DNA of 64,000 nt from Myxococcota bacterium (GCA_965223565.1 CBDCWV010000018.1:1094214-1158213); one strand, 5' to 3'; numbered from the stretch's first letter, positions 746-59,160 are shown. Notes: generated from the sequence alone by a model not told the origin. Translations and numbers: made by a program.

Positions 746-2326
746 ATGGTGGATGCGATCCAAGCGGATCGGGAGGCGTATCTGGCCGCTGGCTGGTGGG
801 GTCGCCGGAGTATCAGTGAGGTCGTGGCGGGATGGGCCGCGCGCACGCCGGATGAAATCGCCTTTCGTTGGGGCTCGGCCGAGATGTCGTGGCGGCAGTA
901 CGATGCGCTGGGCACGCGAATCGCTTCGCGTCTCGCGGGTCTCGGCGTCCGTCCCGGCGATTCGGTCCTGGTCTTCCTACCCGACGGCGGTGGCGTGCAT
1001 GCTGCCTTTCTCGGTACGGAGCGGGCCGGCGCCGTCGCGATCGGGGTCGGTTGGCGCGCGGGCCTTCGTGAGCTCACGAAGCTCACGAGACAGACGCGAC
1101 CCGTGGCCGCGATCTCGGCGAGCGAGACTCGGGTGGGCGACGCCGTGAATCTGTGTCGCGATCTGGGGATCGATCCCCTCGTCATCCTCGATGATCTCGA
1201 CGACAACCCGAGGATCGGGGACGGTCCGATGATGTGTCCCTGCGGTTCGCGTGGGCCCTCGGAGCTGTGGCTGATCAACTCGACCTCGGGGACGACGGGC
1301 TTGCCCAAGTGTGTCATGCAGAATCAGAATCGCTGGTTCTACTTCCATCGGTTGGCGATGGAGTACGGGAATCTCTCGGAGGGCGAGACCTGGATGAGCC
1401 TCGTCCCCGCGCCCTTCGGATTCGGTCTCTGGACGAGCCATGTCAGTCCGACGCTCTCGGGCTCGACGTGCGTCTTGCAGTCGCGTTTCGATGCACGGCA
1501 GGCCGCGGAGGAGATCGCGCGCCATCGCGTCACGGTCCTGTGTGCCGTGAGTTCGCAGTTCGTTATGCTCCTCGACGCCGCCGATGGCCTCGACCTGTCG
1601 AGTCTCGAGGTGATGTTCACGGGCGGAGAGCGTCTACCGCTCGAACGTTCTCGCGAGTTCGAGGAACGGACCGGTTGCGCCGTGCTCAACTTCTACGGCT
1701 CGAACGAGACGGGCGTCCTATCCGGGACACGCGTCAGTGACCCGCTCGAGCGCCGGATCTCCACGGGCGGCCGCTGCGTGGAGGAGATGCAGGTTCGTCT
1801 CTACGACGACGATCTCGCGCGATTACCCGGAGACGTTGGAATCGGTCGTCCGGCATGTCGGGGTCCGGCAACCAGCCCGGGCTACTTCGAGGATCCCGAG
1901 GCAAACGCGGAGCTCTTCACGCCGGATGGATGGATGCTGATGGGCGACTACGTCGAGATCGATGCCGACGGTTGGCTGACCGTGATCGGTCGCTCGGCCG
2001 ACTTCATCGTCCGCGGCGGCAAGAACATCAGCGCACCGGCCGTGGAAGAGGAGGTCTGCACCTGCCCCGGTGTGCTGCAGGCTGCGGCGATCGCGGTTCC
2101 GGACGAACGACTCGGGGAGATCGTCGGAATCTGCGTCGTGCCCCGGGCCGAAGCGAAGCTTCGTCTTGCCGACATCGCAGCGCATCTCGAGGCGCGCGGC
2201 GTCAGTCGCGAATGGTGGCCCGAGCGACTCGCGATCCTCGACGCGTTTCCGACCTCGTCGGGCGGAAAGATCGCGAAGGCCGCGCTCCGGGACCGCGTCG
2301 CCGAGCTCTTTCCAAGGGAAGCATGA
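746..2326 (+). CDS. AMP-dependent acyl-CoA synthetase/ligase
   Basis: 526-aa ORF with the AMP-binding signature NSTSGTTGLPKCV, YGSNETG, and a C-terminal GGKIAK lysine motif. Confidence 0.9.
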   Translation: MVDAIQADREAYLAAGWWGRRSISEVVAGWAARTPDEIAFRWGSAEMSWRQYDALGTRIASRLAGLGVRPGDSVLVFLPDGGGVHAAFLGTERAGAVAIGVGWRAGLRELTKLTRQTRPVAAISASETRVGDAVNLCRDLGIDPLVILDDLDDNPRIGDGPMMCPCGSRGPSELWLINSTSGTTGLPKCVMQNQNRWFYFHRLAMEYGNLSEGETWMSLVPAPFGFGLWTSHVSPTLSGSTCVLQSRFDARQAAEEIARHRVTVLCAVSSQFVMLLDAADGLDLSSLEVMFTGGERLPLERSREFEERTGCAVLNFYGSNETGVLSGTRVSDPLERRISTGGRCVEEMQVRLYDDDLARLPGDVGIGRPACRGPATSPGYFEDPEANAELFTPDGWMLMGDYVEIDADGWLTVIGRSADFIVRGGKNISAPAVEEEVCTCPGVLQAAAIAVPDERLGEIVGICVVPRAEAKLRLADIAAHLEARGVSREWWPERLAILDAFPTSSGGKIAKAALRDRVAELFPREA

Positions 2327-3096: not shown

Positions 3097-4463
3097 GCGC
3101 TCTGTCGAGGTGCCGACACATCGCGCGCGGCCCGAACCGGCGTCCTGGGGAGCGAAATCGATACGACCAGGAAGTGGGCCGCGATCACGAAGACGATGAA
3201 CGTACCGAAGCCCAGGTCGTAGGCCCCCGTTCGATCGCGGACCTCACCGATGAACCGAATCGCGATCACCGAGATGGGCTGCATCACGACCGCCATGACG
3301 CCCATGATCGTTCCGTAGCTTCGCGCACCGAAGACTCTCGCCGTCAGGCTGAGCCAGACGGGATAGACGCCACCCACGGCGACACCGAGCGTCGACGCGA
3401 TCAAGAGCAGGATCCAGTAGCTCGGTCCGATGATCAGCGCGGACAAGAGCGTGACGTGACATGCGACGATCACGCCGAAGAGCAGTCGGATGTCGATTCG
3501 ATCCGACAGGAATCCGACGAGGAGCTTGCCCGCGATCGCGGAGAGCGTCAGGAGCGATACGAACGTGGCAGCCGCAGTGAGGCTCACACCCGCATCCTGA
3601 AGGTACGGTACCTGGGAAGCGAGAATCGCCTGGTCGCTCGCCAGCAGGAAACCGGCTCCGAGCGTCAAGTGCCAGAAATTCCGATCGACCGCGAGTGACT
3701 TGAAATTCCAATCGATGCCGTCCGCGACGGGGTCCGGCATTTCGCCCGACCCGTCTCGTGTGGCGGCGTCTCCGACTGTCGAAGGCTCGTCGTCGAACTC
3801 GTCGTAGGGGGCTACGTCCTCGGAGCGGGGTTCGTCACGAACGAGAAAGAGAGCAGCAGCAATGATCGTCGTGGCGACGCCCACGCCCGTCAGGGTGAGC
3901 GCGGATCGCCATCCGAACTCTTCGATCAAGTGTGCGACGAGTGGTGCCATCACGAAGCCGCCGGCGGATGTCGAAACCGCGAGCACGCCGATCGCCCGGC
4001 CTCTCCTTCGCCTGAACCATCGGGACGCGACGGTATTCGCGGCGATCGTTCCACCCGCAGTCACCCCCATCGACACGGGTCCGAGGATCGCGAGAGAAGT
4101 CAGCCAGAGCGACGACGTCGCAGATATCGCCCAGAAGCCGGCACCGTAGAGCAGGGCGCCGACCATCATCACCCTTCGCGCCGAGAGGCGGTCGATGAGC
4201 CGACCGATGAACGGAGCCCAGATCGCCGTGCCGACGAGCTTCAGGATCAGTCCATTGTTCACGTCCGCTCGAGAGAGGCCGTAGGCCTCCGAAACGGGTA
4301 GAACGAAGAGTCCGAAGATGTAGACGCTGCCGCCGACCGCGAGCGCCGCACAGATGAATCCGCCCGCGACCACGGTCCAACCCCGGTAGAACCATCTCGA
4401 TTCGACTGGAAGGGCGGCTGCGCTCGTCGTCGCTGGGGCTGTGCCGACCTCGGCTTCACGCAT
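3093..4463 (-). CDS. MFS transporter
   Basis: 456 aa with about 12 hydrophobic segments and a charged central loop. Its start overlaps the stop of the upstream TPR gene by 8 nt. Confidence 0.85.
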   Translation of the reverse strand: MREAEVGTAPATTSAAALPVESRWFYRGWTVVAGGFICAALAVGGSVYIFGLFVLPVSEAYGLSRADVNNGLILKLVGTAIWAPFIGRLIDRLSARRVMMVGALLYGAGFWAISATSSLWLTSLAILGPVSMGVTAGGTIAANTVASRWFRRRRGRAIGVLAVSTSAGGFVMAPLVAHLIEEFGWRSALTLTGVGVATTIIAAALFLVRDEPRSEDVAPYDEFDDEPSTVGDAATRDGSGEMPDPVADGIDWNFKSLAVDRNFWHLTLGAGFLLASDQAILASQVPYLQDAGVSLTAAATFVSLLTLSAIAGKLLVGFLSDRIDIRLLFGVIVACHVTLLSALIIGPSYWILLLIASTLGVAVGGVYPVWLSLTARVFGARSYGTIMGVMAVVMQPISVIAIRFIGEVRDRTGAYDLGFGTFIVFVIAAHFLVVSISLPRTPVRAARDVSAPRQSA

Positions 4464-35197: not shown

Positions 35198-36649
35198 TCA
35201 CTCACGCCGATTGCCGCACCGACCGCATGACATCAGTCGCATCCGTTCGGAGCCGACGCCTGCCAACACGAGCAGCCCCGTCGCAAGCATCGTGGCGAGG
35301 CCCGGCTCTGGAACGGCCGAGCAGACGCCGGCCGAACAAAAAGCCACGCTCGCACCGTCGCCGTCGTCACAGGGTGTCGCGTCCGGAAGGCCGACGCAGG
35401 AGCTCGGATGCGCCGTGGTGAGTGGATCCGCGCGGATCACGTAGGCCTGGTCCGCACCGGTCGAAGGAACGATGCTCCCCGTTCGGGCGCGAAACGCGAT
35501 CTGACCGTCGTTGTTGATGGCGCGCGAAGAGAGGTTGATTTCACGTACGAACCAACCGGGGATCGACGCGCTATTCGCACAGCGCACGCGATGGGCCGTC
35601 TCGCCGTCGGTCACGACGAGCGGCTCGCCGAATCGTCGGCTCGCCAGAGCGACCTCGGCATGACCGTTCAGAGAGGTCTGATTCGGGACGTAGTCGAATC
35701 CGGTCGTATCGAGTCCGTCGTCGAGACGAACCTCGCCCGCCAGGCGATCTTCGACGCGGAGTCGCCACGATGTACCGGGCACGTCGTAGATCTCTTCGAT
35801 GAAGGAGACGGCGGGTAGGATGATTCCGTTGAGCGACAGGCCTCGAAGGTACCGGTCGACCCCGTTCACGCTGACGAGCGGTACGCCGTCGTCGACCCAG
35901 ATGTGATATCGCGAATCCTCCCAGCCGATGGAGCCGAACCAGGGCTGCACACCGGGATGCATCACCCATTCCATCGGGTAGCCGCCGACCTCCACCGCGC
36001 TCTCGTCGCGACCGAAGAAGAGACCGGACTGGATCGATTGGCCGATCCGACTGCCACGGAACAGGATGTAGCCCGTGCTATTCGCGGTCGGTCCTTCCTC
36101 GACGTCGATCGATCCAGGGGGTCGGGTCGACTCGCTGACGGCGACGGGCTCCGCAGCGATCGCCAGCGACCGATCGAATCGCTTCCGGTAGAGACCGATG
36201 CCCCCACCGGCACCTCCGCCCTGGCTCAGCTGCGGATAGCCATGCCAGTAGATCCGGTCGTCGTCGCCGATGACCGGCGTCGTCAGCGCAGAGAACTGGG
36301 CTTCGGGATCCTCGGGCGCGCCGGAGCGCGCGACCGCGGACGAGATCGGGATGCCGGTACCGTCGACCGATCCGTCGCCGCTACGAATTTCGTTGATCGG
36401 CCATGCGCGGCGCGCCATGAATGCGACTCGCCCCCGGGAGTTGATCGTGGGCAGGCCATGGAGCCCCTCCGGAAACTGATCCGTACTCGCGATGACGGTG
36501 CAGTGATAGTCGACATCCTGGGCGACGATCTGGGCCGCCGCGGGAAGATTCACGAGCAGCACGAGAATCGCGAGAAGGGAGCCCTGTGCGACCCATGCCA
36601 GCCCGGTGCCTACCCCCTGCGCGACCTGGATCCGATGTATCTCGACCAT
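35198..36649 (-). CDS. PEP-CTERM protein with NxxGxxAF-type repeats
   Basis: AAGGAG Shine-Dalgarno. Signal/TM ...LLAILVLLVNLPAAAQ. Contains INSRGRVAF and INNDGQIAF (NxxGxxAF). C-terminus SAVPEPGLATMLATGLLVLAGVGSERMR plus a 12-aa tail containing a CxxC. Confidence 0.75.
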   Translation of the reverse strand: MVEIHRIQVAQGVGTGLAWVAQGSLLAILVLLVNLPAAAQIVAQDVDYHCTVIASTDQFPEGLHGLPTINSRGRVAFMARRAWPINEIRSGDGSVDGTGIPISSAVARSGAPEDPEAQFSALTTPVIGDDDRIYWHGYPQLSQGGGAGGGIGLYRKRFDRSLAIAAEPVAVSESTRPPGSIDVEEGPTANSTGYILFRGSRIGQSIQSGLFFGRDESAVEVGGYPMEWVMHPGVQPWFGSIGWEDSRYHIWVDDGVPLVSVNGVDRYLRGLSLNGIILPAVSFIEEIYDVPGTSWRLRVEDRLAGEVRLDDGLDTTGFDYVPNQTSLNGHAEVALASRRFGEPLVVTDGETAHRVRCANSASIPGWFVREINLSSRAINNDGQIAFRARTGSIVPSTGADQAYVIRADPLTTAHPSSCVGLPDATPCDDGDGASVAFCSAGVCSAVPEPGLATMLATGLLVLAGVGSERMRLMSCGRCGNRRE

Positions 36650-49635: not shown

Positions 49636-50471
49636 CAGCGGCTCTCGGCCGATCGATTCTGCCAGGCCAGAGCGGCCTTCAGCCCATCGCGCTCAGCGAT
49701 CCGAGCAAATTCCTGGGCGGCGGGGGATCGGTGTGCGATCGCATCGGACTCACGCGCGAGCTCCTGCAGCATCGTTCGCCCCATGAGGTCGATCGCCTTG
49801 TTGCAGATCGACTTGTTCTGGGCCACCAGGTCGTAGGGAACCTGCGCGATGTCCGTCGCGAGGGCGTGCACGGTTTCGTCCAGCTCTCGCGGCGCGACCG
49901 CTTGCATCACGAGTCCGATACGTTCCGCCGTTCGGCCGTCGATCATCCCGCCCGTCAGCAGGAGCCGCTTCGCCCACTGCGGCCCGACCATGTAGGTCCA
50001 CATGTGTGTCGAGGGCGAGCCCATCGATCTCACCGCCGGGAACCCGAGCTGGGCGTCCTCACTCGCGACGATCATGTCGCAATTGAGCGCCATATCGGTT
50101 CCACCGGCCAGGCAATAGCCGTGGACCTTGACGATGATCGGTTTCGTCAGGCTCCACAGATTCGACCAGCGACCGGATCGTGCGGTCAGGTCGTTGATGT
50201 CCTGCCGGATCGTGAGCTCCGACGGCGCGCGGGCTCCGTGGTCGACGACGTCGGTGTCGCTCTTGGGTGTGAGGTCCCATCCCGAGCAGAACGCGCGTCC
50301 GGCTCCCTGGAGCACCAGGCAGCCGACCTCCTCGTCCGCTTCGGCCGCCTTCGTGGCGTCGAGAAGCTCCTGCATCAGATCGGTCGTGAGGGCGTTCAGC
50401 TTCTCCGGCCGGTTCAGTGTGAGATACGCGACGCGGTCTCGCGTCTCGGTCAGGACGTTCTCGGATCGCAT
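49635..50471 (-). CDS. Enoyl-CoA hydratase/isomerase family protein
   Basis: The internal ATG 50471 gives MRSENVLTETRDRVAYLTLNRPEKLNAL...GAGRAFCSGWD...VHGYCLAGG. Confidence 0.85.
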   Translation of the reverse strand: MRSENVLTETRDRVAYLTLNRPEKLNALTTDLMQELLDATKAAEADEEVGCLVLQGAGRAFCSGWDLTPKSDTDVVDHGARAPSELTIRQDINDLTARSGRWSNLWSLTKPIIVKVHGYCLAGGTDMALNCDMIVASEDAQLGFPAVRSMGSPSTHMWTYMVGPQWAKRLLLTGGMIDGRTAERIGLVMQAVAPRELDETVHALATDIAQVPYDLVAQNKSICNKAIDLMGRTMLQELARESDAIAHRSPAAQEFARIAERDGLKAALAWQNRSAESR

Positions 50472-50535
50472 CTCGAATTCTCCCCGCGCCAGATCCCGGA
50501 GTGATGATACCCTCGAAAGGTACCAGGAGAGTGCC

Positions 50536-51840
50536 ATGCACGAGCCGCTCCCGTTCCAGATCAATGACGCCGACAATCATTTCGTCGAGCCGGAGGACAT
50601 GTACGAGCGGTACATCGACCCGCGATTTCGAGACAAGGCGGTCCGCTTCGTTCGGGGATCCGACGGCCGACGCGTCCAGCTCTTTGGAGATCGACCTTCG
50701 AAGCTCGCCTTCACCCGCGAATCGGCTCCGCAGACCGAGCAGGAGCTCGAGACCCTTGCGACGACGGCGGCGGCCGACGCGCGGGCCGACGCACCGAGGC
50801 CGGGAGACGGGGGCGCGCGCTCTCCCGGAATGTTCCTCAATCGCCTGAATCCCTACAAAGGCCTCGATGAAGCCGAACGCAAGGCGCTGATTCGCGATTT
50901 CAAGGAGCAGGAGGCGGCGTGGGGCGATCGTGATCGCCGCCTCGCTCTGATGGACGAGCAGGGGATCGATGCCGCTTTGATGTTTCCGGGCCACGTGCTC
51001 AGCCTCGAGTACGAGTTCCAGGACGACGTCGACGCTATCCACGCCAATGCGCGGGCATATAATCGCTGGATCTTCGATGAGGTCGGCTATTCCCATCAGG
51101 ATCGCATGTTCCTGCCGCCTTATGTTCCGCTGGCGGACATCGACCTCGCGGTCGAAGAAGTCGAACGCGTGATCGCCGAGGGGGCGCGCGTCGTCGGCTT
51201 CATCTCGGGCCACGTCCATGGCGGACGGAAGAATCCACGCGGCGGACGCTCGATCGCGGATCCCGTCTTCGACCCCGTTTGGTCGCGAATCGACGAGGCG
51301 AACGTCCGCGTTGCCACGCATGTCGGTCCGACCGACTATCAGAAATACGGGGCCGACTTGAGCGAGGACCCGGAGGCGGTGCTCGGAAGCTTCGATGGAC
51401 TGCAATGGGCGCTCTACTGGTGCGACCGACCGGCCATGGAGACCGTGACCAGCATGATCATGCACGGGCTCTTCGATCGCTTTCCGAATATCCATGTCTG
51501 TCTGGCAGAGCAGGGCACGCCGTGGCTTCCCTACCTGCTCCGCAAGCTCGATCATGCGTTCCTGATGGGACGCAAGGCGCGTTGGGGCTCGCTCGATCGA
51601 CGGCCGAGCGAGCTCTTCCGAGAACATTTCGTCGTCGCACCGTTTCCGGAGGAGAACGTCGAGCGAGTTGTGGCGGAGGTCGGTATCGAGCCGATCGTGT
51701 TCGGGTCGGATTTTCCGCACGGGGAGGGGCTCGCCTTTCCGAGCCAATACGTCTCCGCCCAGCTCGGAGGCTTCTCGCAAGAGCAGATCGAGGCGATCAT
51801 GCGCGACAATTTGGCGCGATTCCTGATGCTCGATCGATGA
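50536..51840 (+). CDS. Amidohydrolase-2 family protein
   Basis: AGGAGA Shine-Dalgarno. Contains MHEPLPFQINDADNHFVEPEDMY... and ...VFGSDFPHGEG. Upstream track-ORF codons are a shadow of the crotonase gene. Confidence 0.85.
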   Translation: MHEPLPFQINDADNHFVEPEDMYERYIDPRFRDKAVRFVRGSDGRRVQLFGDRPSKLAFTRESAPQTEQELETLATTAAADARADAPRPGDGGARSPGMFLNRLNPYKGLDEAERKALIRDFKEQEAAWGDRDRRLALMDEQGIDAALMFPGHVLSLEYEFQDDVDAIHANARAYNRWIFDEVGYSHQDRMFLPPYVPLADIDLAVEEVERVIAEGARVVGFISGHVHGGRKNPRGGRSIADPVFDPVWSRIDEANVRVATHVGPTDYQKYGADLSEDPEAVLGSFDGLQWALYWCDRPAMETVTSMIMHGLFDRFPNIHVCLAEQGTPWLPYLLRKLDHAFLMGRKARWGSLDRRPSELFREHFVVAPFPEENVERVVAEVGIEPIVFGSDFPHGEGLAFPSQYVSAQLGGFSQEQIEAIMRDNLARFLMLDR

Positions 51841-53941
51841 TGCTCGTGGGTGTCGGTACGAGCCCCTTCGCGTCGAGCTCGATCACGCGATCGGCACTCG
51901 CGTAGGTCTCCGGCCGATGGGCCACGATCAGGCGGGTGAGCGCGAGCTGACTCACGGCCTGATTCACGCGCTGCTCCCGCGCGGTGTCGAGATGGCTCGT
52001 CGCTTCGTCGAGAACCAGAATCGCTGGCGCTTTGTAGAGCGCGCGCGCCAGCAAAACGCGTTGCTTCTGGCCTCCGGAGAGGACGGTCCCCATGTCGCCG
52101 ATCAGCGTGTTGTAGGCCATCGGCATGGCAGAGACGTCTTCGTGGACGGCGGCGCGTTCGGCGCACGTCTCGATCCGTGCGTGATCGGGTGTCGGGTCGA
52201 AGAAGCTGATGTTGTCGGCGATCGATCCGGCGAAGAGCTGATCCTCCTGCATGACGGTTCCGATCATGTCGCGATATCCGGGTCCCAGCGCGGAGATGTC
52301 TACGCCGCCGACGCGAATCTCGCCCTCGACGGGCGTGAGCAGGCCGAGAATCAGCTTCAGGAGTGTCGTCTTGCCGCAGCCGGACGGGCCGATGATCGCG
52401 ACCGATTTCCCCGCGTCGATCTCGAAGCTCACGTTCTCTAGGACGAGCGGCTCGGACTCCGAATAGCGAAAGCTGACGCCCCGTACCTCGATTCCCGCCG
52501 CGGCTTCCGTCTCGCGACGCGAGCTCATTGAGGACTCGGCTTCGGGCGCGGTGAGTGCGATGTCGGCGACTCGCTCCGTATGGAGGCCGAGCATCTTCAG
52601 CTCGATCGCGTTCTCGATCAGACTCGACACGCGTTCCGAGAACTGCTGCTTGTAGGCCATGAACGCGAAGAGCATGCCGACCGAGAAGCCGCCGTTCAGC
52701 ACGGCCAGCGCGCCGAGCCAGACGACCGCGACGTTCTCGATGCTGAACAGACCCCCGTTCGCCCCTTCGTACAGGATCTCGAGCTTCTGCGTGCGGATGT
52801 CGGCATTGATGTTGTCCACCAGCAGGTTCTGATGCGCGACGGAGCGCTGTGTCTCGCGGCGGAAGAGCTTGACGCTCTGCATGCCGCGTAGGGTCTCGAG
52901 GAAGTAGGTCTGCTGACGCGCGGCATGGGCGATCTGCTCCTCCTGCGCCTGGCGTAGCGGCCTGAACAGGGCCCATCGAAGTGCCGCGTAGAGAACGACC
53001 GCGGCGCAGACCACCGCGGTCAGTCGCCAGCTGTAGACGAGCATCATTCCCAACGTGATGACCGCCATCAGACCGTCGACGATCGCCTCGATCAGATTCG
53101 AGGTCAGGCCGGACTGAATCGCCTGGAGAGACTCGAAGCGCGACGCGATGTCGCCGAGATGGCGCTTCTCGAAGAAGCGCATTGGCAGCTTCAACAGGTG
53201 ACGAAACAGCCGATCGGCCATTCGCAGGCTCAGGCCCGTGCTGAGGGTCATCACGACCCAGGCGCGCAATGCGCTGACGCCAGTGTGGACGATGGCGAGC
53301 AGGAGAAATCCCATGCCCAATACGACGAGGAAATGTCGGTCTCCACCGACGAGTGCATCGTCGACGACCAGCTGCATGAAGAGGGGGCTCGCGATCGCGA
53401 AGACCTCGAGCGCCGCTGCGAGGACGAGAATCTGGGCCATCGCGCCGCGCGCGCCGGGCAGCCGGCCGACCAGATCTCGCAGGGCCACGTTCCGGCGTTC
53501 GACTCTGGGTTCGAATGCTTCGGTCGGAGCGAGCTCCAGGGCGACGCCGGTGAAATGTTTCGAGGCCTCGGCCAGGCTGAGTCTTCGCGTGCCGCGGGCA
53601 GGGTCGTGGATGAAGACGTGGCCACGGTGCACGCGTTCGACGACCACGAAGTGGTTGAAATCCCAATGCAGGATGGCCGGTAGGTCGAGCCGTTTCAATT
53701 CGTCGAGATCGACTCTGACGGCACGCGGGGCGAGCTGCATTCGAAGCGCGATCTCCATCAGCTGCGCGAGTGTCGATCCCTTGAGCGAGAGTGGATGGTG
53801 ACCGCGCAGACTGGTGAGATCCGTGCGGTATCCGTGGTATCCGGCAACCATCGCGAGACAGGCCAGACCGCATTCTGCGGCCTCGGCCTGCAGGACGAGG
53901 GGAAGGCTCCTGCGACTGGAGAATTTCAACGAGCTGCGCAT
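51797..53941 (-). CDS. Peptidase C39 domain-containing ABC exporter (bacteriocin/microcin-type, CvaB/LagD-like)
   Basis: N-terminal LQAEAAECGLACLAMVAGYHG (Cys), HWDFNHFVVV (His) and FIHDP (Asp). Six-TM domain. Walker A GPSGCGKTT, signature LSGGQKQR, Walker B ILVLDEATS. Confidence 0.92.
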   Translation of the reverse strand: MRSSLKFSSRRSLPLVLQAEAAECGLACLAMVAGYHGYRTDLTSLRGHHPLSLKGSTLAQLMEIALRMQLAPRAVRVDLDELKRLDLPAILHWDFNHFVVVERVHRGHVFIHDPARGTRRLSLAEASKHFTGVALELAPTEAFEPRVERRNVALRDLVGRLPGARGAMAQILVLAAALEVFAIASPLFMQLVVDDALVGGDRHFLVVLGMGFLLLAIVHTGVSALRAWVVMTLSTGLSLRMADRLFRHLLKLPMRFFEKRHLGDIASRFESLQAIQSGLTSNLIEAIVDGLMAVITLGMMLVYSWRLTAVVCAAVVLYAALRWALFRPLRQAQEEQIAHAARQQTYFLETLRGMQSVKLFRRETQRSVAHQNLLVDNINADIRTQKLEILYEGANGGLFSIENVAVVWLGALAVLNGGFSVGMLFAFMAYKQQFSERVSSLIENAIELKMLGLHTERVADIALTAPEAESSMSSRRETEAAAGIEVRGVSFRYSESEPLVLENVSFEIDAGKSVAIIGPSGCGKTTLLKLILGLLTPVEGEIRVGGVDISALGPGYRDMIGTVMQEDQLFAGSIADNISFFDPTPDHARIETCAERAAVHEDVSAMPMAYNTLIGDMGTVLSGGQKQRVLLARALYKAPAILVLDEATSHLDTAREQRVNQAVSQLALTRLIVAHRPETYASADRVIELDAKGLVPTPTSIIDRASGIAPNCRA

Positions 53942-53942
53942 C

Positions 53943-55199
53943 TCAAGCCCGCTTGGCGATGCCGAGGAGTGGCTCGAAGAGCCATTCGACGAGTCGCCGT
54001 CGGTCGAGCCACACGTCGGCTTCGAGCAGCATTCCAGCCTGGAGGGGGAGCGCGTTCGCGTAGGCCATGACCGTCTGACGGTCGAGCGCGACGGTGACTC
54101 GGTACGCCGGCTCGTCCCCCGCGATCGGCAGGCTGGCTTCGTCTGGCGCGATCAACGTTCTGGAGATTTCGGTGACGCGTCCGTGGTGGAGGCCGAAACG
54201 CTGATAGGGAAAGGCTTGGTAGCGCAGAGAAACTCTCTGTTCGGGCTCGATGAAGCCGATCGAGCGACTCGGCACGAGCAGCTGTGCCTCGAGAATCGCG
54301 CCCTGCGGGAGGATCGAAAGCAGGAGCGTATTCGGCTGCGCGGTCTGGCCACGGTCCACGAGAATCGCAGTCGCGGTCCCATCGGCCGGTGCAGCGATCT
54401 CGATCGTGCGTCGAGACTGACGTTCCATGCGCTCCTGTTCGAGCGCTGCGATCTCGCGGCTGATCGAGGAACGTCGATTCTGGGCCTCGAGCTCCTGGGT
54501 GGCCGATCGTCGCTCGAGTGCCCCGAGCTCGGTCTCCAGTGAGACACGAGCGCGGCGCAGACTCTTCTCTCTCGCCCGCTGCGCAAGCCATAGCTCGCGG
54601 TGCTCCTCTGTTCGCGCCTTCGAGACGAGGTCCTGCGCGAGCAGCCTCCGGTAGCGTCGAAGCGTTCGCGCGGCGTTCGCGGTGCGCTGCTCCTGGATGC
54701 GAATCTCTGCGTCGAGCTGCGTCAGCTCCGCTCGAAAACCGTTCGCGCGTTCTCGCGCGGTGCCCAGAGCGATGGCGTCGATCGCGTCTTGCTTGTCACG
54801 CTCGTGTGACAGGCGTTCGCGCCGCTCTTCGATCATCTCGATCGCAGCGGCCTGCGTCTTGGCCGTCTCGCGCGACCCGCGTTCCGTGGACAGCAGGAAG
54901 AGTCGCTCACCGCGTCTGACCCGTTGGCCCTCGACGACGTGGCTCTCGACCAGCGTGCCCGCCTGTTGCGCATACACCTTGATCAAGCCGTGATCGGGTG
55001 TGAGATAGCCAGGAACCTGCGCCTTTCGCGTGTACTGCCCCAGGAAGACGAAGGCGACGAGCGACGCCGCAACTGCCGCTGACAGAAACGTGAGCAGTCC
55101 GCGCGAAGGGGATCGCGCGATGACGGCCTCACCGAGCGACTTCTCTCGATTGAAATCGAGCGCTTCGTGGCGAAAGAGTGATTCGTGGGATTCCGTCAT
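53943..55199 (-). CDS. HlyD-family membrane fusion (type I secretion adaptor, CvaA-like) protein
   Basis: MTESHESLFRHEALDF... followed by a single TM, a long coiled-coil, a barrel-sandwich region, and ...RRLVEWLFEPL. The stop is 1 nt from the ABC gene start. Confidence 0.9.
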   Translation of the reverse strand: MTESHESLFRHEALDFNREKSLGEAVIARSPSRGLLTFLSAAVAASLVAFVFLGQYTRKAQVPGYLTPDHGLIKVYAQQAGTLVESHVVEGQRVRRGERLFLLSTERGSRETAKTQAAAIEMIEERRERLSHERDKQDAIDAIALGTARERANGFRAELTQLDAEIRIQEQRTANAARTLRRYRRLLAQDLVSKARTEEHRELWLAQRAREKSLRRARVSLETELGALERRSATQELEAQNRRSSISREIAALEQERMERQSRRTIEIAAPADGTATAILVDRGQTAQPNTLLLSILPQGAILEAQLLVPSRSIGFIEPEQRVSLRYQAFPYQRFGLHHGRVTEISRTLIAPDEASLPIAGDEPAYRVTVALDRQTVMAYANALPLQAGMLLEADVWLDRRRLVEWLFEPLLGIAKRA

Positions 55200-55290
55200 G
55201 ACGATCCAGCCTGAGGATGAGGTGATCTGCGGACCGGATCGTCGGCGCCCGACCGCGACCGTCGCCGATTGTGCGGCGCCGAAACGAGCC

Positions 55291-55311
55291 GAGGACGCTT
55301 TGCGCGTCCCC
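55291..55311 (-). terminator. Hairpin between the precursor peptide gene and the HlyD gene (attenuator/partial terminator candidate)
   Basis: The minus strand reads GGGGACGC-GCAAA-GCGUCCUC, an 8-bp stem with one G-U pair, followed by GGCUCGUUUCGG. It lies 21 nt after the peptide stop. Confidence 0.4.
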
Positions 55312-55331
55312 GGCTGACAGCTCGGTCGACC

Positions 55332-55538
55332 TCAGCGACGAGCGACCTCTCGAACGCGACCGCGAAGGCTTCGCTTGGCGCGTCGAACGGCCTCTCTGAC
55401 CCGCGACTTGAAGGAACGTCCGCCCCTCCGGCGCGAGATCTTCTTGATGAGGGCGGCCTGGCCCCTCACGGCTTCGGCGATCGATCCGAAGATTCCGCCC
55501 GAAACCAGATCGAGCTCTCGAGTATCGAGTGTCCGCAT
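55332..55538 (-). CDS. Double-glycine-leader peptide precursor (68 aa): 15-aa leader plus a 53-aa Arg-rich core
   Basis: MRTLDTRELDLVSGG | IFGSIAEAVRGQAALIKKISRRRGGRSFKSRVREAVRRAKRSLRGRVREVARR. GGAG Shine-Dalgarno 5 nt upstream, preceded by an unusually AT-rich leader (AAACCAACAAAATGGAG). It lies directly upstream of, and on the same strand as, the HlyD and C39-ABC genes. Confidence 0.75.
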   Translation of the reverse strand: MRTLDTRELDLVSGGIFGSIAEAVRGQAALIKKISRRRGGRSFKSRVREAVRRAKRSLRGRVREVARR

Positions 55539-55690
55539 GTCGTCTCCATTTTGTTGGTTTCCACTTCGCGACCAGGCGGAGAGCCCGCGCCGGTCATTCG
55601 ATTACCGGCAGCACCGCCTGCCAGGGTCGCGTGTGTACTTCCATCGAAGTGGAGCCGAGGTTCACGGAGAATCACCGTGTCCGTCGTGTC

Positions 55691-55714
55691 GGAGGAACGA
55701 GGTGTCGTTCCCCC
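55691..55714 (-). terminator. Strong hairpin downstream of the choice-of-anchor gene
   Basis: The minus strand reads GGGGGAACGA-CACC-UCGUUCCUCC, about 10 bp including a G-U pair with a tetraloop, roughly 40 nt after the stop at 55753. There is no U-tract. Confidence 0.4.
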
Positions 55715-55752
55715 AAAGGGCCGATCGTCCCCGTGGAGGACCGAAGCTTTCG

Positions 55753-57672
55753 TCAGGGGACGCGCGAGGCCGAGCAATCGCAGCTTGAGCGTGTCCGGGA
55801 ACGCCACCCTGCGAGACTCGCGACCGCACACGCGAGTGCCATCCCAAAGCCCGGCTCCGGCAGGTATTCGTAGGCGCCCATGTCGCATTCGCGATCACCG
55901 TCGAAGTTTCCGTCGACCGGCCTGAATGCGCCCCGCTGGTCGTATTCGGCGGGACCGGCGCCGGGCGCGGGGCAGCGGCCCGCGTCGATCGCGGGACTCG
56001 TTCCGGCGAGGGGTTGGACCGAGGACCAGCCGTCTTCGAAGAAGGGCAGAAAATTCGGATTGGCGAAGTAGATCATCCCGGTATGCAAGCCACCGATGCC
56101 GCAAGGGGTTCCCGTAAAGATTGGGCCCGGGACCTCGATCAGGCTGTTTGCGCCGTTCGAGAACTGACCGATACAATCCGGATAGTCGCCTCCGACCACC
56201 TCGTTGTCTGCGACGATCGAGTTGACGAGCGCCGTAGTCCAATTCGTGTTCGAGCCCAGGTAGATCCCGCCCCCGTCGCCGTAGATGTTCCCGGTCCATC
56301 CGTCGGCGTTGGCGATGTTTTCTGTGACTGTCACGTGATCGAGTCGCAGATCGGATCCCGGCGAATAGATGCCACCGCCGTGGGCGTCAGCGGCGTTCCC
56401 CACGATCGAGACGTTCTCCAAATCCACGTCGTTTCCTGCGCCATAGAGATAGATCCCGCCGCCGAGACCGTGGGACGTGTTGTCGTAGATTGCGGAATTG
56501 CGCATCTCCAGTTCCGCATTGCTGAGGAAGATTCCGCCTCCGGTGTCCGCGGCCAGGTTGTTTCGCACGGCGACGCGCTCGAGCAGGATCGGTTCGATCC
56601 CTCCATTGATTGCGAGTCCACCCCCGTCGCCTCCTGTGTACGGTGAACTGCTATAGGCACTATTCGATGCGATCTCACTGCGGCTGATCTCGAGGATGGC
56701 GCCGTACGAGTACACGCCTCCCCCCCGTGCATCCCTTGTCGCGGAGAGGTTCTGTGCGAGGTTGCCCTCGATCAAGGTATCCGAGATGCGCAGCTCCCCG
56801 TCGCCGCGGTTGGCGACGCCGCCTCCGTACACGAAGCTGATGTCATTGAGGCCCCTCGCGCTGTTCGACGTGATCTGCGTCCCGCCGTCGAGTGTGACCA
56901 GGCCGTCCAGGTTGTAGATGCCTCCGCCGACCCCGGTCGCGAGATTGGAATGGACGACTGCGCCGCTCAATCGCATCTCGGGCGTCTCCGTCCAGTAGCT
57001 CGAACTCGAGCTCTGCGTGAGACCGCCTCCGATCGGTGCCTCGTTGTCGCTCACGATCAATCCGCCCGGACTCACGAGGCGCGCATGGTTCTTGATGCCG
57101 CCCCCGGCAAAGTCAGCTTCGTTGTCTCGGATCGTGACATCCTGGAGCACTACGGTTGCGCTGAAGTTGCTGAGCCCGCCCCCGCCGCCGCCTCGATTCG
57201 ACTCGAGCGTGACGCGGTCGAAGCGGACCGTGATCAGCTCAGAGGTTGGACCGACCACGACGCCCCCACCGTCGGAGACCGTATCCCCATGGCGAATCGT
57301 CAGATCGCGAAACTGCACATCATCGTCGGTGTCGACGCGAAAGACCCGTCCCGCGCTCATCCCGGGTGCCGCCGCGGCCTGCACGATCGTCTGGCTCTGG
57401 GAGGTGCCCGCGATCGTGACCGATCTCAGGACGACAATGTTGGCTTCGGTGTGGGGCGAGGTCATCTGCAGCTGGATCGTGTCACCCGCCGAAGCCCCAA
57501 TGATGGCGGACTGGATCGTCGTGTAGTCGCACGTCGCGGGGCAGACGGTCCAGGTTGCGGCGTTGGCGTTCTTCGCCGAAAGACCGCCTACGGCGATCGT
57601 GAGCAATCCGAAGAGCAAGCCAGCGTTCATTCCTGCTGTTGCTCGCATTGCGATCCAGTTCCCTACGATCAT
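55753..57672 (-). CDS. Choice-of-anchor-Q-like beta-helix protein with a PEP-CTERM tail
   Basis: GGGAG Shine-Dalgarno before ATG 57672. Signal ...TIAVGGLSAKNANA. Many GGG(I/V)(Y/F) turns typical of Pmp-like beta-helices. Contains YDQRGAFRPVDGNFDGDRECDMGAYEY. C-terminus LPEPGFGMALACAVASLAGWRSRTR plus a 12-aa tail. Confidence 0.8.
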   Translation of the reverse strand: MIVGNWIAMRATAGMNAGLLFGLLTIAVGGLSAKNANAATWTVCPATCDYTTIQSAIIGASAGDTIQLQMTSPHTEANIVVLRSVTIAGTSQSQTIVQAAAAPGMSAGRVFRVDTDDDVQFRDLTIRHGDTVSDGGGVVVGPTSELITVRFDRVTLESNRGGGGGGLSNFSATVVLQDVTIRDNEADFAGGGIKNHARLVSPGGLIVSDNEAPIGGGLTQSSSSSYWTETPEMRLSGAVVHSNLATGVGGGIYNLDGLVTLDGGTQITSNSARGLNDISFVYGGGVANRGDGELRISDTLIEGNLAQNLSATRDARGGGVYSYGAILEISRSEIASNSAYSSSPYTGGDGGGLAINGGIEPILLERVAVRNNLAADTGGGIFLSNAELEMRNSAIYDNTSHGLGGGIYLYGAGNDVDLENVSIVGNAADAHGGGIYSPGSDLRLDHVTVTENIANADGWTGNIYGDGGGIYLGSNTNWTTALVNSIVADNEVVGGDYPDCIGQFSNGANSLIEVPGPIFTGTPCGIGGLHTGMIYFANPNFLPFFEDGWSSVQPLAGTSPAIDAGRCPAPGAGPAEYDQRGAFRPVDGNFDGDRECDMGAYEYLPEPGFGMALACAVASLAGWRSRTRSSCDCSASRVP

Positions 57673-57909
57673 CTCGATCTCCCGATCCGGAACGCGCTCG
57701 CGCTCGCGTTTCCGATCGGAGCAATACGCTACGCACGCGCCGCCATGCCCACCGTGAAGGGCTTCACACATCGCGCGGTGCTTCCTGAGGGGAATCGTCT
57801 CGCTTCATTCGATTGGCGCACGCTCCCGACGGCGTACCCTTTCGCCGTAGGACGACGACTGACGACGAGGACGTGCGGAGAATCCGACGTGGGTCCCGGG
57901 AGGCCGATC

Positions 57910-59160
57910 ATGAGTCGAAGGATGGAAGCGCGCTCTGGGGCTTGTGTCGAACGCCTGTCGTCAGGCGCGCCCTCCGTCGAGCGAAATCGGTGCGATCTGG
58001 GCGCCAGCTGGACCTTTCGTCTGCTGCTCGCGGTCGTGGCGTTCGCGCCTGCCGCACACGGACAGATCGAGAACATGATCGAGATCCAGACGCTCTCGGC
58101 GGCCGATGCAGGCGGTTGTTATGTCGGAGCCTCCGGCTCGGACGCCACGATGTTCATCCGGGCGGCGCCCGGTGGCACGACTTGTGATTTCGGCGACCTG
58201 AATCCGAACTTCTGTCTCCACCGTCGGGAATTTCCCGCCGATGGGGCGGATGGAGCAGCCGTCAGCTTCAGCGACATGGCCTTGCTGCGTCCGACGCTTC
58301 AGGGCGACGGCGAAGTCGTCTGGTTCGTGAACAATCTCGACCTCTGCGTGATGTTCAGCAACCAGGTGCAGCAGGACGCGTGCTACATGCTGCCGCCGAC
58401 GTTCTTCGTGAACTCGGTTGCCGTCCAGCCTCAGGGCGCCCTGCTCGGGATGGTTCCGCGTGACCTGTTCAACATCAACGTGCCGGCCAATGCGATCCAG
58501 GTCTTCGGTATCGGGAGCTTTCCGAGCCTGACGCTCCTGGCCACTCTCCAGTTCACGAACCCGCTCGTCTATCCGGAGACGCTCGACTTCATGACCCGTG
58601 GGTCTTGGATCGTCTTCGACGCGTCGACGACGCCGACGGCGGGAGGTGCGTGGGGATTGTACCTGGTGAATCGCGTCACGGGTGCCTTCCGCACGCTGGC
58701 TGCCCCCGTCGCCGGCTACGAGCTGCGCAATCCGGTCTTCGGCCAAACGAGCGACGACGTGATCGCCTTCGATGCGATCGATACCAGCACGGGTCAGGCA
58801 ACCGTGCTGACCGCAGACATCGTCAGCGGCGCCGTGCGCAAGGTCGCCGAGCTGGCGACGCCGATGGGCGTTCCGACCTTCAATGGCGACGATTCTGCGC
58901 TCGTCTTCAACCGGGAGGATGCGAGCGTTTTCTCGACCGTCTCGCTGCGCGAACGACCGCTATCGGCCGATCGGATCACCCCGACCGGCAGCGAGACGGC
59001 CCATGTCGCGAACGGAGGCTACGCGACGATCTACCGTCGCGGCGCGTTCGACGACTCGGCGGTGGCATGCCCAGAACCCGGCATGGTCACTGGGCTCGCG
59101 ATTTCGTTGCTCTGGATGCGTCTCGCCCCGCGTCGAAGCGGGCGACGAGGGCTTCTCTGA
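57910..59160 (+). CDS. PEP-CTERM secreted hypothetical protein (beta-rich, possibly propeller-like)
   Basis: GGGAGG Shine-Dalgarno. Signal ...FRLLLAVVAFAPAAHGQ. C-terminus ACPEPGMVTGLAISLLWMRLAPRRSGRR. The first 320 codons of the track ORF are antisense shadow of the previous gene. Confidence 0.7.
   Translation: MSRRMEARSGACVERLSSGAPSVERNRCDLGASWTFRLLLAVVAFAPAAHGQIENMIEIQTLSAADAGGCYVGASGSDATMFIRAAPGGTTCDFGDLNPNFCLHRREFPADGADGAAVSFSDMALLRPTLQGDGEVVWFVNNLDLCVMFSNQVQQDACYMLPPTFFVNSVAVQPQGALLGMVPRDLFNINVPANAIQVFGIGSFPSLTLLATLQFTNPLVYPETLDFMTRGSWIVFDASTTPTAGGAWGLYLVNRVTGAFRTLAAPVAGYELRNPVFGQTSDDVIAFDAIDTSTGQATVLTADIVSGAVRKVAELATPMGVPTFNGDDSALVFNREDASVFSTVSLRERPLSADRITPTGSETAHVANGGYATIYRRGAFDDSAVACPEPGMVTGLAISLLWMRLAPRRSGRRGLL

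Follow-up and report, generated by a model that had tools for sequence, protein, structure and literature searches.

The 64-kb stretch of Myxococcota DNA analysed here (GCA_965223565.1, CBDCWV010000018.1:1094214-1158213; hereafter the window) carries three co-directional genes on its minus strand: a small open reading frame (ORF) with a double-glycine (GG) leader, a gene for an HlyD-family adaptor or membrane fusion protein (MFP), and a gene for an ATP-binding cassette (ABC) exporter with a C39 peptidase domain. We consider it likely that these genes form a class II microcin-type (type I secretion) export cassette of precursor, MFP and peptidase-containing ABC transporter (PCAT), whose product would be an exported polycationic antibacterial peptide. 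The peptide is a new cargo family, with two members, in a known and common export system, and it is set apart by its extreme charge and by the lack of a linked immunity gene. A preliminary description of the window had outlined the same three genes, and our ORF calls returned its layout and coordinates (Table 1), including spacers of 132 nt between the peptide ORF and the HlyD gene and of 1 nt between the HlyD and ABC genes. The 1-nt gap after the HlyD stop codon suggests translational coupling of the two export genes.

The small ORF is a conserved gene

Whether the small ORF codes for a protein is decided by conservation and not by composition alone. We searched 1.84 billion representative proteins, into which about 15 billion had been clustered, exhaustively with HMMER and obtained one full-length homolog, here called P0001, which comprises 69 aa and is 55% identical to the window peptide (E = 6.6e-9). 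The conservation on which the preliminary description had made its proposal depend was thus found in a single relative. P0001 reads MRTLNVQEIEQVSGG followed by RFGSIAEAIRGQLGLIRKIKGRKRRGGSLARRLREISRRARRIVGGRREAFGRR; its start and the position of its double glycine coincide with those of the window peptide, and the lengths are nearly equal. The window and the P0001 locus (L161) share the first two-thirds of the ORF at the DNA level. Global alignment of both copies scored 168 in the annotated frame, compared with 26–124 in the other five frames, and the differences are distributed 27/19/36 over the first, second and third codon positions. The proportions of differing nonsynonymous (pN) and synonymous (pS) sites are 0.308 and 0.635, respectively. 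Judged from this comparison, the substitution pattern is that of a translated gene under purifying selection, and the small ORF is a genuine conserved protein-coding gene. Its codon-usage log-odds are +5.6, versus -15.6 and -20.4 for the other frames of the same strand.

Further relatives were not found by the searches employed. The peptide has no Pfam or NCBIfam match; a word-indexed protein search, a scan of metagenome contigs, tblastn against plasmids and tblastn over all 160 transporter loci introduced below gave no match; a profile search of the PDB delivered chance matches alone (E above 0.2), and a profile of the two-member family brought back P0001 alone. The earlier impression that the cargo resembles no described bacteriocin family agrees with these results.

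Other reading frames of the region were inspected as well. A frameshifted remnant of another cargo family was rejected, as the other frames contain no recognisable cargo and are less conserved. One antisense frame of the peptide gene (55335-55538) contains no stop codon in either locus, window or L161, and aligns with a score of 124, compared with 168 for the sense frame; it is probably a by-product of an Arg-codon-rich, GC-rich sequence. A long plus-strand ORF at 55269-55925 has a flat GC content across its codon positions (0.64/0.67/0.64) and was not considered a gene.

Leader and cargo position among orthologous cassettes

To place the peptide in context, relatives of the transporter were scanned in species-representative genomes and metagenome contigs, and 160 loci (L001–L160) were fetched. 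At least 585 candidate stretches were confirmed in the genomes and at least 571 in the metagenome contigs. The transporters of these relatives are 55–66% identical to that of the window; among the matches listed, none exceeds 66% for the ABC protein or 56% for the HlyD protein, and the best belong to Methylomonas, Nitrosomonas, Burkholderiales, Usitatibacter, Steroidobacter and unclassified Pseudomonadota. Two claims of the preliminary description do not hold in the light of this survey. The proposed new export system is instead an HlyD-PCAT pair of a large clade, with at least 570 relatives in each of the two collections, and the host context, regarded as unusual before, is not so: the clade spans Gamma- and Betaproteobacteria from the environment, and further genomes of 60–74% GC are among them.

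In 143 of the 160 loci, the ABC gene is directly preceded by the HlyD gene. Where enough upstream sequence was available, a GG-leader ORF was detected upstream of HlyD, on the same strand and within 2 kb, in about half of the loci (63/125). Control positions gave much lower values, with 16/125 on the opposite strand and 10/103 and 8/103 downstream of the ABC gene (8–13%). The preliminary description had proposed to check orthologous transporters for upstream GG-leader ORFs; diverse GG-leader peptide genes are usual at this position in the clade. Their leader consensus, L(-12) S/T x E E(-8) L(-7) x x V(-4) S(-3) G G, is matched by the window leader LDTRELDLVSGG at L-12, E-8, L-7, V-4, S-3, G-2 and G-1. 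We built a position-specific scoring matrix (PSSM) from the leaders next to orthologous transporters and scored the six-frame translation of the window with it: the leader of the small ORF was the top 12-mer of 108,310 in the whole window, with a score of 12.5 and the next best at 8.6. Both results bear out the classical GG-leader spacing that had been noticed in the sequence.

According to the locus survey and the PSSM, the window peptide thus sits at the cargo position of the clade and carries the leader of the clade. Together with its conservation, this makes the small ORF the most plausible substrate of the transporter, and the dedicated cleavage-and-export cassette put forward in the preliminary description is upheld at this predictive level. 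The orthologous cassettes resemble the window in HlyD-ABC order, cargo position, the xxELxxVSGG leader consensus and a common hairpin after the cargo gene, while their cargos are unrelated in sequence to that of the window (for example YLDWETDWCGT..., ...ALNPQPLPP... or GGLLG-rich peptides). Many of these loci contain two or three cargo genes, and in some of them multi-pass membrane proteins are encoded between cargo and HlyD. The window peptide and nine cargos from orthologous loci gave no curated-family match above cutoff.

Some cargos and accessory genes of the clade deserve mention in their own right. GG-leader cargos with otherwise different cores have in common a C-terminal motif, (V/A)ALNPQPLPP, that matches no curated family; it was seen in L001 (3566-3784), L004 (3295-3513), L005 (2172-2390), L016 (3352-3579), L017 (3737-3937) and L025 (4096-4323) and recurs across Methylococcales, Burkholderiales and unclassified Pseudomonadota. 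Nitrosomonas cassettes contain, among the GG-peptide genes upstream of HlyD, a conserved gene for a Cys-containing, non-transmembrane protein of 144 aa (MKTEPETLCPSAQP…CAKGACAHFDE…; L018 3806-4240, L021 3872-4306, L026 ~3840-4274). In L076, L117 and L138, which are of Usitatibacter or Burkholderiales type, membrane proteins of 272–284 aa with four to five predicted transmembrane (TM) segments are encoded between the cargo gene and HlyD. These proteins (GFQIAFLVVALL) are candidates for immunity-like or CPBP-like proteins, and the window contains no equivalent.

The export proteins

The ABC protein matches Peptidase_C39 (6.8e-36, aa 14-141), ABC_membrane (2.1e-44) and ABC_tran (1.2e-31) of Pfam, while the adaptor matches HlyD_3 (1.9e-12) and HlyD_D23 (1.5e-11), so that all four domain searches suggested beforehand were positive. 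The catalytic set of C39 domains consists of Cys, His, Asp and an oxyanion Gln. Aligned to solved peptidase domains, Gln18, Cys24, His97 and Asp113 of the ABC protein fall into the conserved Gln/Cys/His/Asp columns of LahT150, ComA and PCAT1; by this alignment, the C39 domain carries a complete catalytic set. The Walker A (GPSGCGKT), signature (LSGGQKQR) and Walker B (ILVLDEAT) motifs are intact in the translation. The structure alignments and the translation thereby support the competent peptidase and the intact ATPase motifs described before.

Over its full length the ABC protein aligns to PCAT1 (4RY2, 1.1e-85), ComA (8HF4) and HlyB, and it combines both defining traits of PCATs, an N-terminal catalytic C39 domain and an exporter transmembrane domain followed by a nucleotide-binding domain. 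The solved PCAT1 (4RY2), ComA (8HF4, 3K8U) and LahT150 (6MPZ) have the same domain order and active-site residues, with full-length E-values of ~1e-85 to 1e-79. The similarity of the N-terminal domain to the solved peptidase domains is moderate, and among these LahT150 is the best match of the N-terminal 150 residues (E = 1.5e-22). [quoted passage not shown]

Assignment to a named subfamily was not obtained. In NCBIfam, the ABC protein scored best with TIGR03796 (NHLM_micro_ABC1), a family of NHLP bacteriocin exporters, at 496 bits compared to a cutoff of 853; TIGR01193 (bacteriocin_ABC, Gram-positive peptide cleavage and export) reached 326 of 524 bits and the HlyB family TIGR01846 reached 406 of 726 bits. 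The adaptor scored 125 bits against TIGR01843 (type_I_hlyD, cutoff 209) and 54 bits against the NHLP-type TIGR03794 HlyD family (cutoff 156). Since the score of the ABC protein is under the cutoff for every named NCBIfam subfamily, it is a PCAT by architecture and not a curated equivalog. Consequently, membership in bacteriocin_ABC was rejected, and so was an NHLP/Nif11 export system, for which both ABC and HlyD proteins score under the cutoffs and the peptide has neither an NCBIfam match nor a long NHLP/Nif11 leader. Secretion of repeats-in-toxin (RTX) proteins by HlyB/HlyD was rejected as well, given the retained catalytic Cys24, the TIGR01846 score and a candidate substrate with an N-terminal GG leader. 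ComAB-type pheromone export was discarded because there is no histidine kinase or response regulator among the scanned neighbours and no signature of an enhancer-binding protein in the window.

The core peptide and known systems

The predicted core of 6.08 kDa has a pI of 12 and a net charge of +16, with 15 Arg and 4 Lys versus 3 Glu; its Arg fraction is 0.28, and it contains no Cys, no Thr and five Ser. That of P0001 is predicted at 6.23 kDa with a charge of +17. Three parts can be distinguished: a conserved head (xFGSIAEAxRGQxxLIxKI), a hinge with the sequence RRGG, and a tail helix that is amphipathic and Arg-rich. The head is nearly invariant between both peptides. In the tail, a hydrophobic stripe with a spacing of three to four residues is kept in both homologs, while the polar residues vary and stay cationic and Arg-rich. 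AlphaFold2, run on the two-sequence alignment, placed a leader helix at residues 6-13 and two further helices at 16-38 and 41-67 with the RRGG hinge between them, at a mean predicted local distance difference test (pLDDT) score of 70; a helix-hinge-helix fold of the core is hence predicted with moderate confidence. The hydrophobic moment of the tail helix is 0.67 (P = 0.003 versus shuffles) in the window peptide and 0.58 (P = 0.03) in P0001. Amphipathicity of helix 1 was not significant in the same test.

Class II microcin systems export GG-signal peptides by means of a PCAT, an MFP and TolC (PMC12219008). The window cassette shares several of their traits. Its precursor is small (<10 kDa), has an N-terminal GG signal of about 15 aa like that of microcin V (CvaC, with CvaA as MFP, CvaB as PCAT, and TolC), and is accompanied by no modification genes. 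As in these systems, the genes of the HlyD-family MFP and the C39-ABC protein are linked to the precursor gene, and the host is a diderm, as seen from OmpA, a TonB-dependent receptor and a porin O/P in the window. Scans of the neighbourhood revealed no modification enzyme among 16 neighbouring genes, no regulator, sensor kinase or response regulator among the scanned neighbours, no ORF of at least 30 aa with a predicted TM segment in 55200-55760 that could serve as immunity gene, and no TolC/OEP gene among the 26 window genes scanned; the same four absences had been reported before. In such systems TolC is normally unlinked; CvaAB of E. coli, for example, uses the chromosomal tolC.

Differences are apparent as well. 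Unlike class II microcin systems, the window cassette has no adjacent immunity gene. Its cargo is Arg-rich, with a charge of +16, and by prediction helical throughout; the cargos of microcin systems are hydrophobic or Gly-rich, with no charge or a negative one. The order cargo-MFP-PCAT, with a hairpin after the cargo gene, differs from microcin V-type systems. Furthermore, the host belongs to an environmental high-GC lineage and not, as for microcin V, to the enterobacteria, and we infer the antibacterial action here.

Cecropin-like peptides and leaderless or class IId bacteriocins of Gram-positive bacteria comprise about 40–55 aa, are highly cationic and form amphipathic helices with a Gly-containing hinge. 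The window peptide shares size, high charge and Gly-hinged amphipathic helices with such cationic helical bacteriocins and antimicrobial peptides. However, no sequence similarity was detected, its Arg-dominated charge of +16 is more extreme, and its GG leader and Gram-negative PCAT/MFP export are unlike theirs.

DNA elements flanking the peptide gene

Upstream of the peptide gene, the window and L161 have completely different genes, and thus the conserved unit starts at the promoter region. There, about 90 nt upstream of the ORF, a box of the form ATGGAAGTACACA(C/T)GCGAC is identical in 18 of 19 nt between the window and L161 (~1227-1245), while the intergenic surroundings have diverged. It is unique in the window, where 0.01 chance matches are expected. 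The GG-N10-GC spacing (TGG...GC) corresponds to the -24/-12 geometry of sigma-54 promoters, and the flanking bases fit the consensus weakly; the box is a candidate promoter or operator, compatible with a sigma-54 element. An activator for it was looked for in the window, and no GAFTGA-type enhancer-binding-protein motif was found. Some 20 nt further upstream, the two loci have a TGAACC motif in common as well. Regarding the 5' region, the preliminary description was right about the GGAG Shine-Dalgarno sequence, whereas the AT-richness it emphasised is only moderate: by hand count, the ~30 nt before the ATG have ~48% GC compared to 65% for the window.

The hairpin noted in the spacer between the peptide ORF and HlyD proved to be real, with a folding energy of -36.6 kcal/mol (z = -3.6 versus shuffles). 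L161 has an equivalent at the same place (-33.7 kcal/mol, z = -3.7), with one compensatory change from a G-C to an A-T pair, and among 22 orthologous cassettes whose spacers are comparable, 15 have a stable hairpin between cargo gene and HlyD. We infer a terminator- or attenuator-like element between cargo and transporter genes, and its occurrence across the clade would fit an attenuator controlling how much precursor is made relative to transporter. A consensus scan for sigma-70 promoters and intrinsic terminators (55150-55800) found nothing; it did not call the hairpin because the T-tract is weak, so that folding alone revealed it. Rfam returned nothing for 55100-55850.

Evidence against and alternative explanations

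Several observations speak against the interpretation as a class II microcin-type cassette. Verified class II microcins have their immunity gene immediately adjacent (PMC12219008), whereas no adjacent small inner-membrane immunity gene is present here, nor was a TolC gene found among the 26 window genes scanned. The 92 unique cargo cores of the orthologous cassettes have net charges from -11 to +6, with a median of 0, and Arg fractions of at most 0.16; the +16 of the window core lies outside the charge range of all of them. According to a review, microcins are highly hydrophobic and mostly neutral or anionic (PMC10233263), and the cargo is unlike the known ones too. In addition, the GC content at third codon positions (GC3) is 0.68 for the peptide ORF and 0.74–0.82 for neighbouring genes, and in codon usage the ORF ranks low, at the 6th percentile of real-gene windows. 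The linkage of peptide and transporter has been seen once, because L161 is a 1.6-kb contig that ends 64 nt past the stop codon of P0001. Finally, cleavage, export and antibacterial activity of the peptide are predictions.

In an alternative that we hold to be unlikely, the peptide might be exported as a non-antibiotic polycation that binds anionic polymers (exopolysaccharide, extracellular DNA or lipopolysaccharide), for example in organising the matrix or flocs of a PEP-CTERM-rich organism, or it might act as a signal. Such a role would be in line with the missing immunity gene, with a charge (+16/+17) and an Arg content (28%) that microcin-type cargos do not come near (PMC10233263), with a tail that conserves composition and amphipathicity over sequence, and with a cassette located between genes for PEP-CTERM-type secreted proteins. 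Yet the neighbouring PEP-CTERM gene is not conserved beside the homolog in L161, and the signal variant finds no sensor kinase or response regulator nearby. Moreover, cationic amphipathic helix-hinge-helix peptides, such as cecropin-like peptides and leaderless bacteriocins, are classically membrane-active. Characterised PCAT cargos are mostly antibacterial or pheromones, and no PCAT function other than the export of small GG-signal proteins has been reported (PMC12219008).

Alternatively, the small ORF could be a decaying remnant or a chance ORF, while the transporter serves GG peptides encoded elsewhere. The weak codon usage and low GC3, the ease with which Arg-rich ORFs arise in DNA of 65% GC, the open antisense frame in both homologs, a family of only two known members, and the unrelated cargos of the closest transporters (66%, among the matches listed) could be explained in this way. 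However, the ORF has a full-length homolog with equal start, equal GG position and nearly equal length, in which the annotated frame is the best conserved (168 versus at most 124), substitutions are most frequent at codon position 3 and the ribosome-binding site is identical. The leader is, furthermore, the top PSSM match of the window and stands at the cargo position of orthologous loci. We thus regard this explanation as very improbable.

Least of all do we expect a RiPP precursor that unlinked enzymes modify prior to leader removal by the PCAT (lanthipeptide- or NHLP-like): the best NCBIfam match of the ABC protein and its closest solved peptidase domain, LahT150 of a lanthipeptide system, point in this direction, but the TIGR03796 score is far under its cutoff, scans of 16 neighbouring genes gave no modification enzyme, the core lacks Cys and Thr and contains five Ser only, and the leader is a short GG leader of 15 aa instead of an NHLP or Nif11 domain.

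Genomic surroundings

The features of the cassette and its neighbours are compiled in Table 1. Downstream, the 3' ends of the ABC gene and a convergent amidohydrolase gene overlap by 44 nt (51797-51840), which leaves no room for a terminator between them; enoyl-CoA hydratase and short-chain dehydrogenase/reductase (SDR) genes lie beyond. Upstream, the reading frame of the divergent plus-strand secreted protein is hidden in a longer mechanical ORF (56950-59160). In L161, a hydrophobic membrane protein of 92 aa without Pfam match, a possible immunity protein, is encoded at 847-1125 (-); its gene is divergent from that of P0001 and lies 230 nt upstream. No homolog of this protein was detected in the window.

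Table 1. Features of the peptide export cassette and of neighbouring genes in the window.
Feature	Position	Strand	Evidence
Peptide ORF, 68 aa	55538..55332	-	ORF call
Double-glycine leader MRTLDTRELDLVSGG, codons 1-15, predicted cut after Gly15	55494..55538	-	clade consensus, PSSM, P0001
Predicted core (mature) peptide, 53 aa	55335..55493	-	homolog P0001, frame conservation, AlphaFold2
HlyD-family periplasmic adaptor (MFP), 418 aa	53943..55199	-	Pfam HlyD_3, HlyD_D23
Peptidase-containing ABC transporter (PCAT), 714 aa	51797..53941	-	Pfam domains, alignment to solved PCATs
PCAT, C39 domain	~53519-53902	-	
PCAT, transmembrane domain	~52634-53431	-	
PCAT, ATPase domain	~51995-52441	-	
Upstream box ATGGAAGTACACACGCGAC, 19 nt, candidate promoter/operator	55626..55644	-	conserved in L161
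Shine-Dalgarno GGAG, 5 nt before ATG	55544..55547	-	GGAGACGACATGCG identical in window and L161
GC-rich hairpin right after stop codon, 12-bp core stem ~55288-55315, then TCGTTTCGG	55279..55331	-	folding
Secreted protein, 672 aa, choice-of-anchor Q domain, PEP-CTERM-like tail LPEPGFGMALACAVASLAGWRSR, upstream of peptide gene	55753-57771	-	
Secreted protein, PEP-CTERM-like tail CPEPGMVTGLAISLLWMRLAPRRSGRR, no Pfam match, divergent from 672-aa gene	~57991-59160	+	
Secreted protein, PEP-CTERM-like tail VPEPGLATMLATGLLVLAGVG	35198-36649	-	
Amidohydro_2 (amidohydrolase), convergent, downstream of ABC	50128-51840	+	

Proposed function and implications

If the class II microcin-type reading is correct, the precursor would be transcribed from its own promoter, and the hairpin would terminate or attenuate most transcripts, or stabilise a short mRNA, so that precursor mRNA exceeds transporter mRNA. 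The leader helix would dock on the C39 domain with Leu-12, Leu-7 and Val-4 as its hydrophobic face, and cleavage would follow after Gly15. ATP hydrolysis would then drive the 53-aa core with its charge of +16 through the PCAT, from where it would pass the HlyD adaptor and a TolC-like duct in the outer membrane, the gene of which would lie elsewhere in the genome. Outside the cell, the polycationic amphipathic tail might act on anionic surfaces, most likely the envelopes of competing bacteria, while the strictly conserved N-terminal head may confer target specificity. Self-protection could be achieved by export itself or by an unlinked factor.

One might speculate further that this protamine-like polycation (+16, 28% Arg) is the first representative of a functionally new type among the PCAT cargos of Gram-negative bacteria, either a receptor-independent antibacterial that targets membranes or nucleic acids and needs no dedicated immunity protein, or a non-antibiotic extracellular cross-linker of anionic exopolymers, and that it may be expressed from a sigma-54-type promoter. 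We put this idea forward tentatively and rate its chances as rather low.

From a practical point of view, a 53-residue, unmodified and Cys-free peptide is amenable to synthesis or to secretion from the CvaAB chassis strains that already exist. Should it prove to be secreted and active, the chemical range of cargos exported by Gram-negative PCATs would extend from hydrophobic, receptor-dependent microcins to an extremely cationic helical peptide, and the question would arise how the producer tolerates it without a linked immunity gene. About half of the more than 120 orthologous cassettes, from methanotrophs, nitrifiers and soil Burkholderiales, carry unannotated and very diverse GG peptides. 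Class II microcin-type systems have been called "almost pervasive" beyond Enterobacteriaceae (PMC12219008), and our survey supports this recent view that such systems are pervasive and under-annotated in environmental bacteria.

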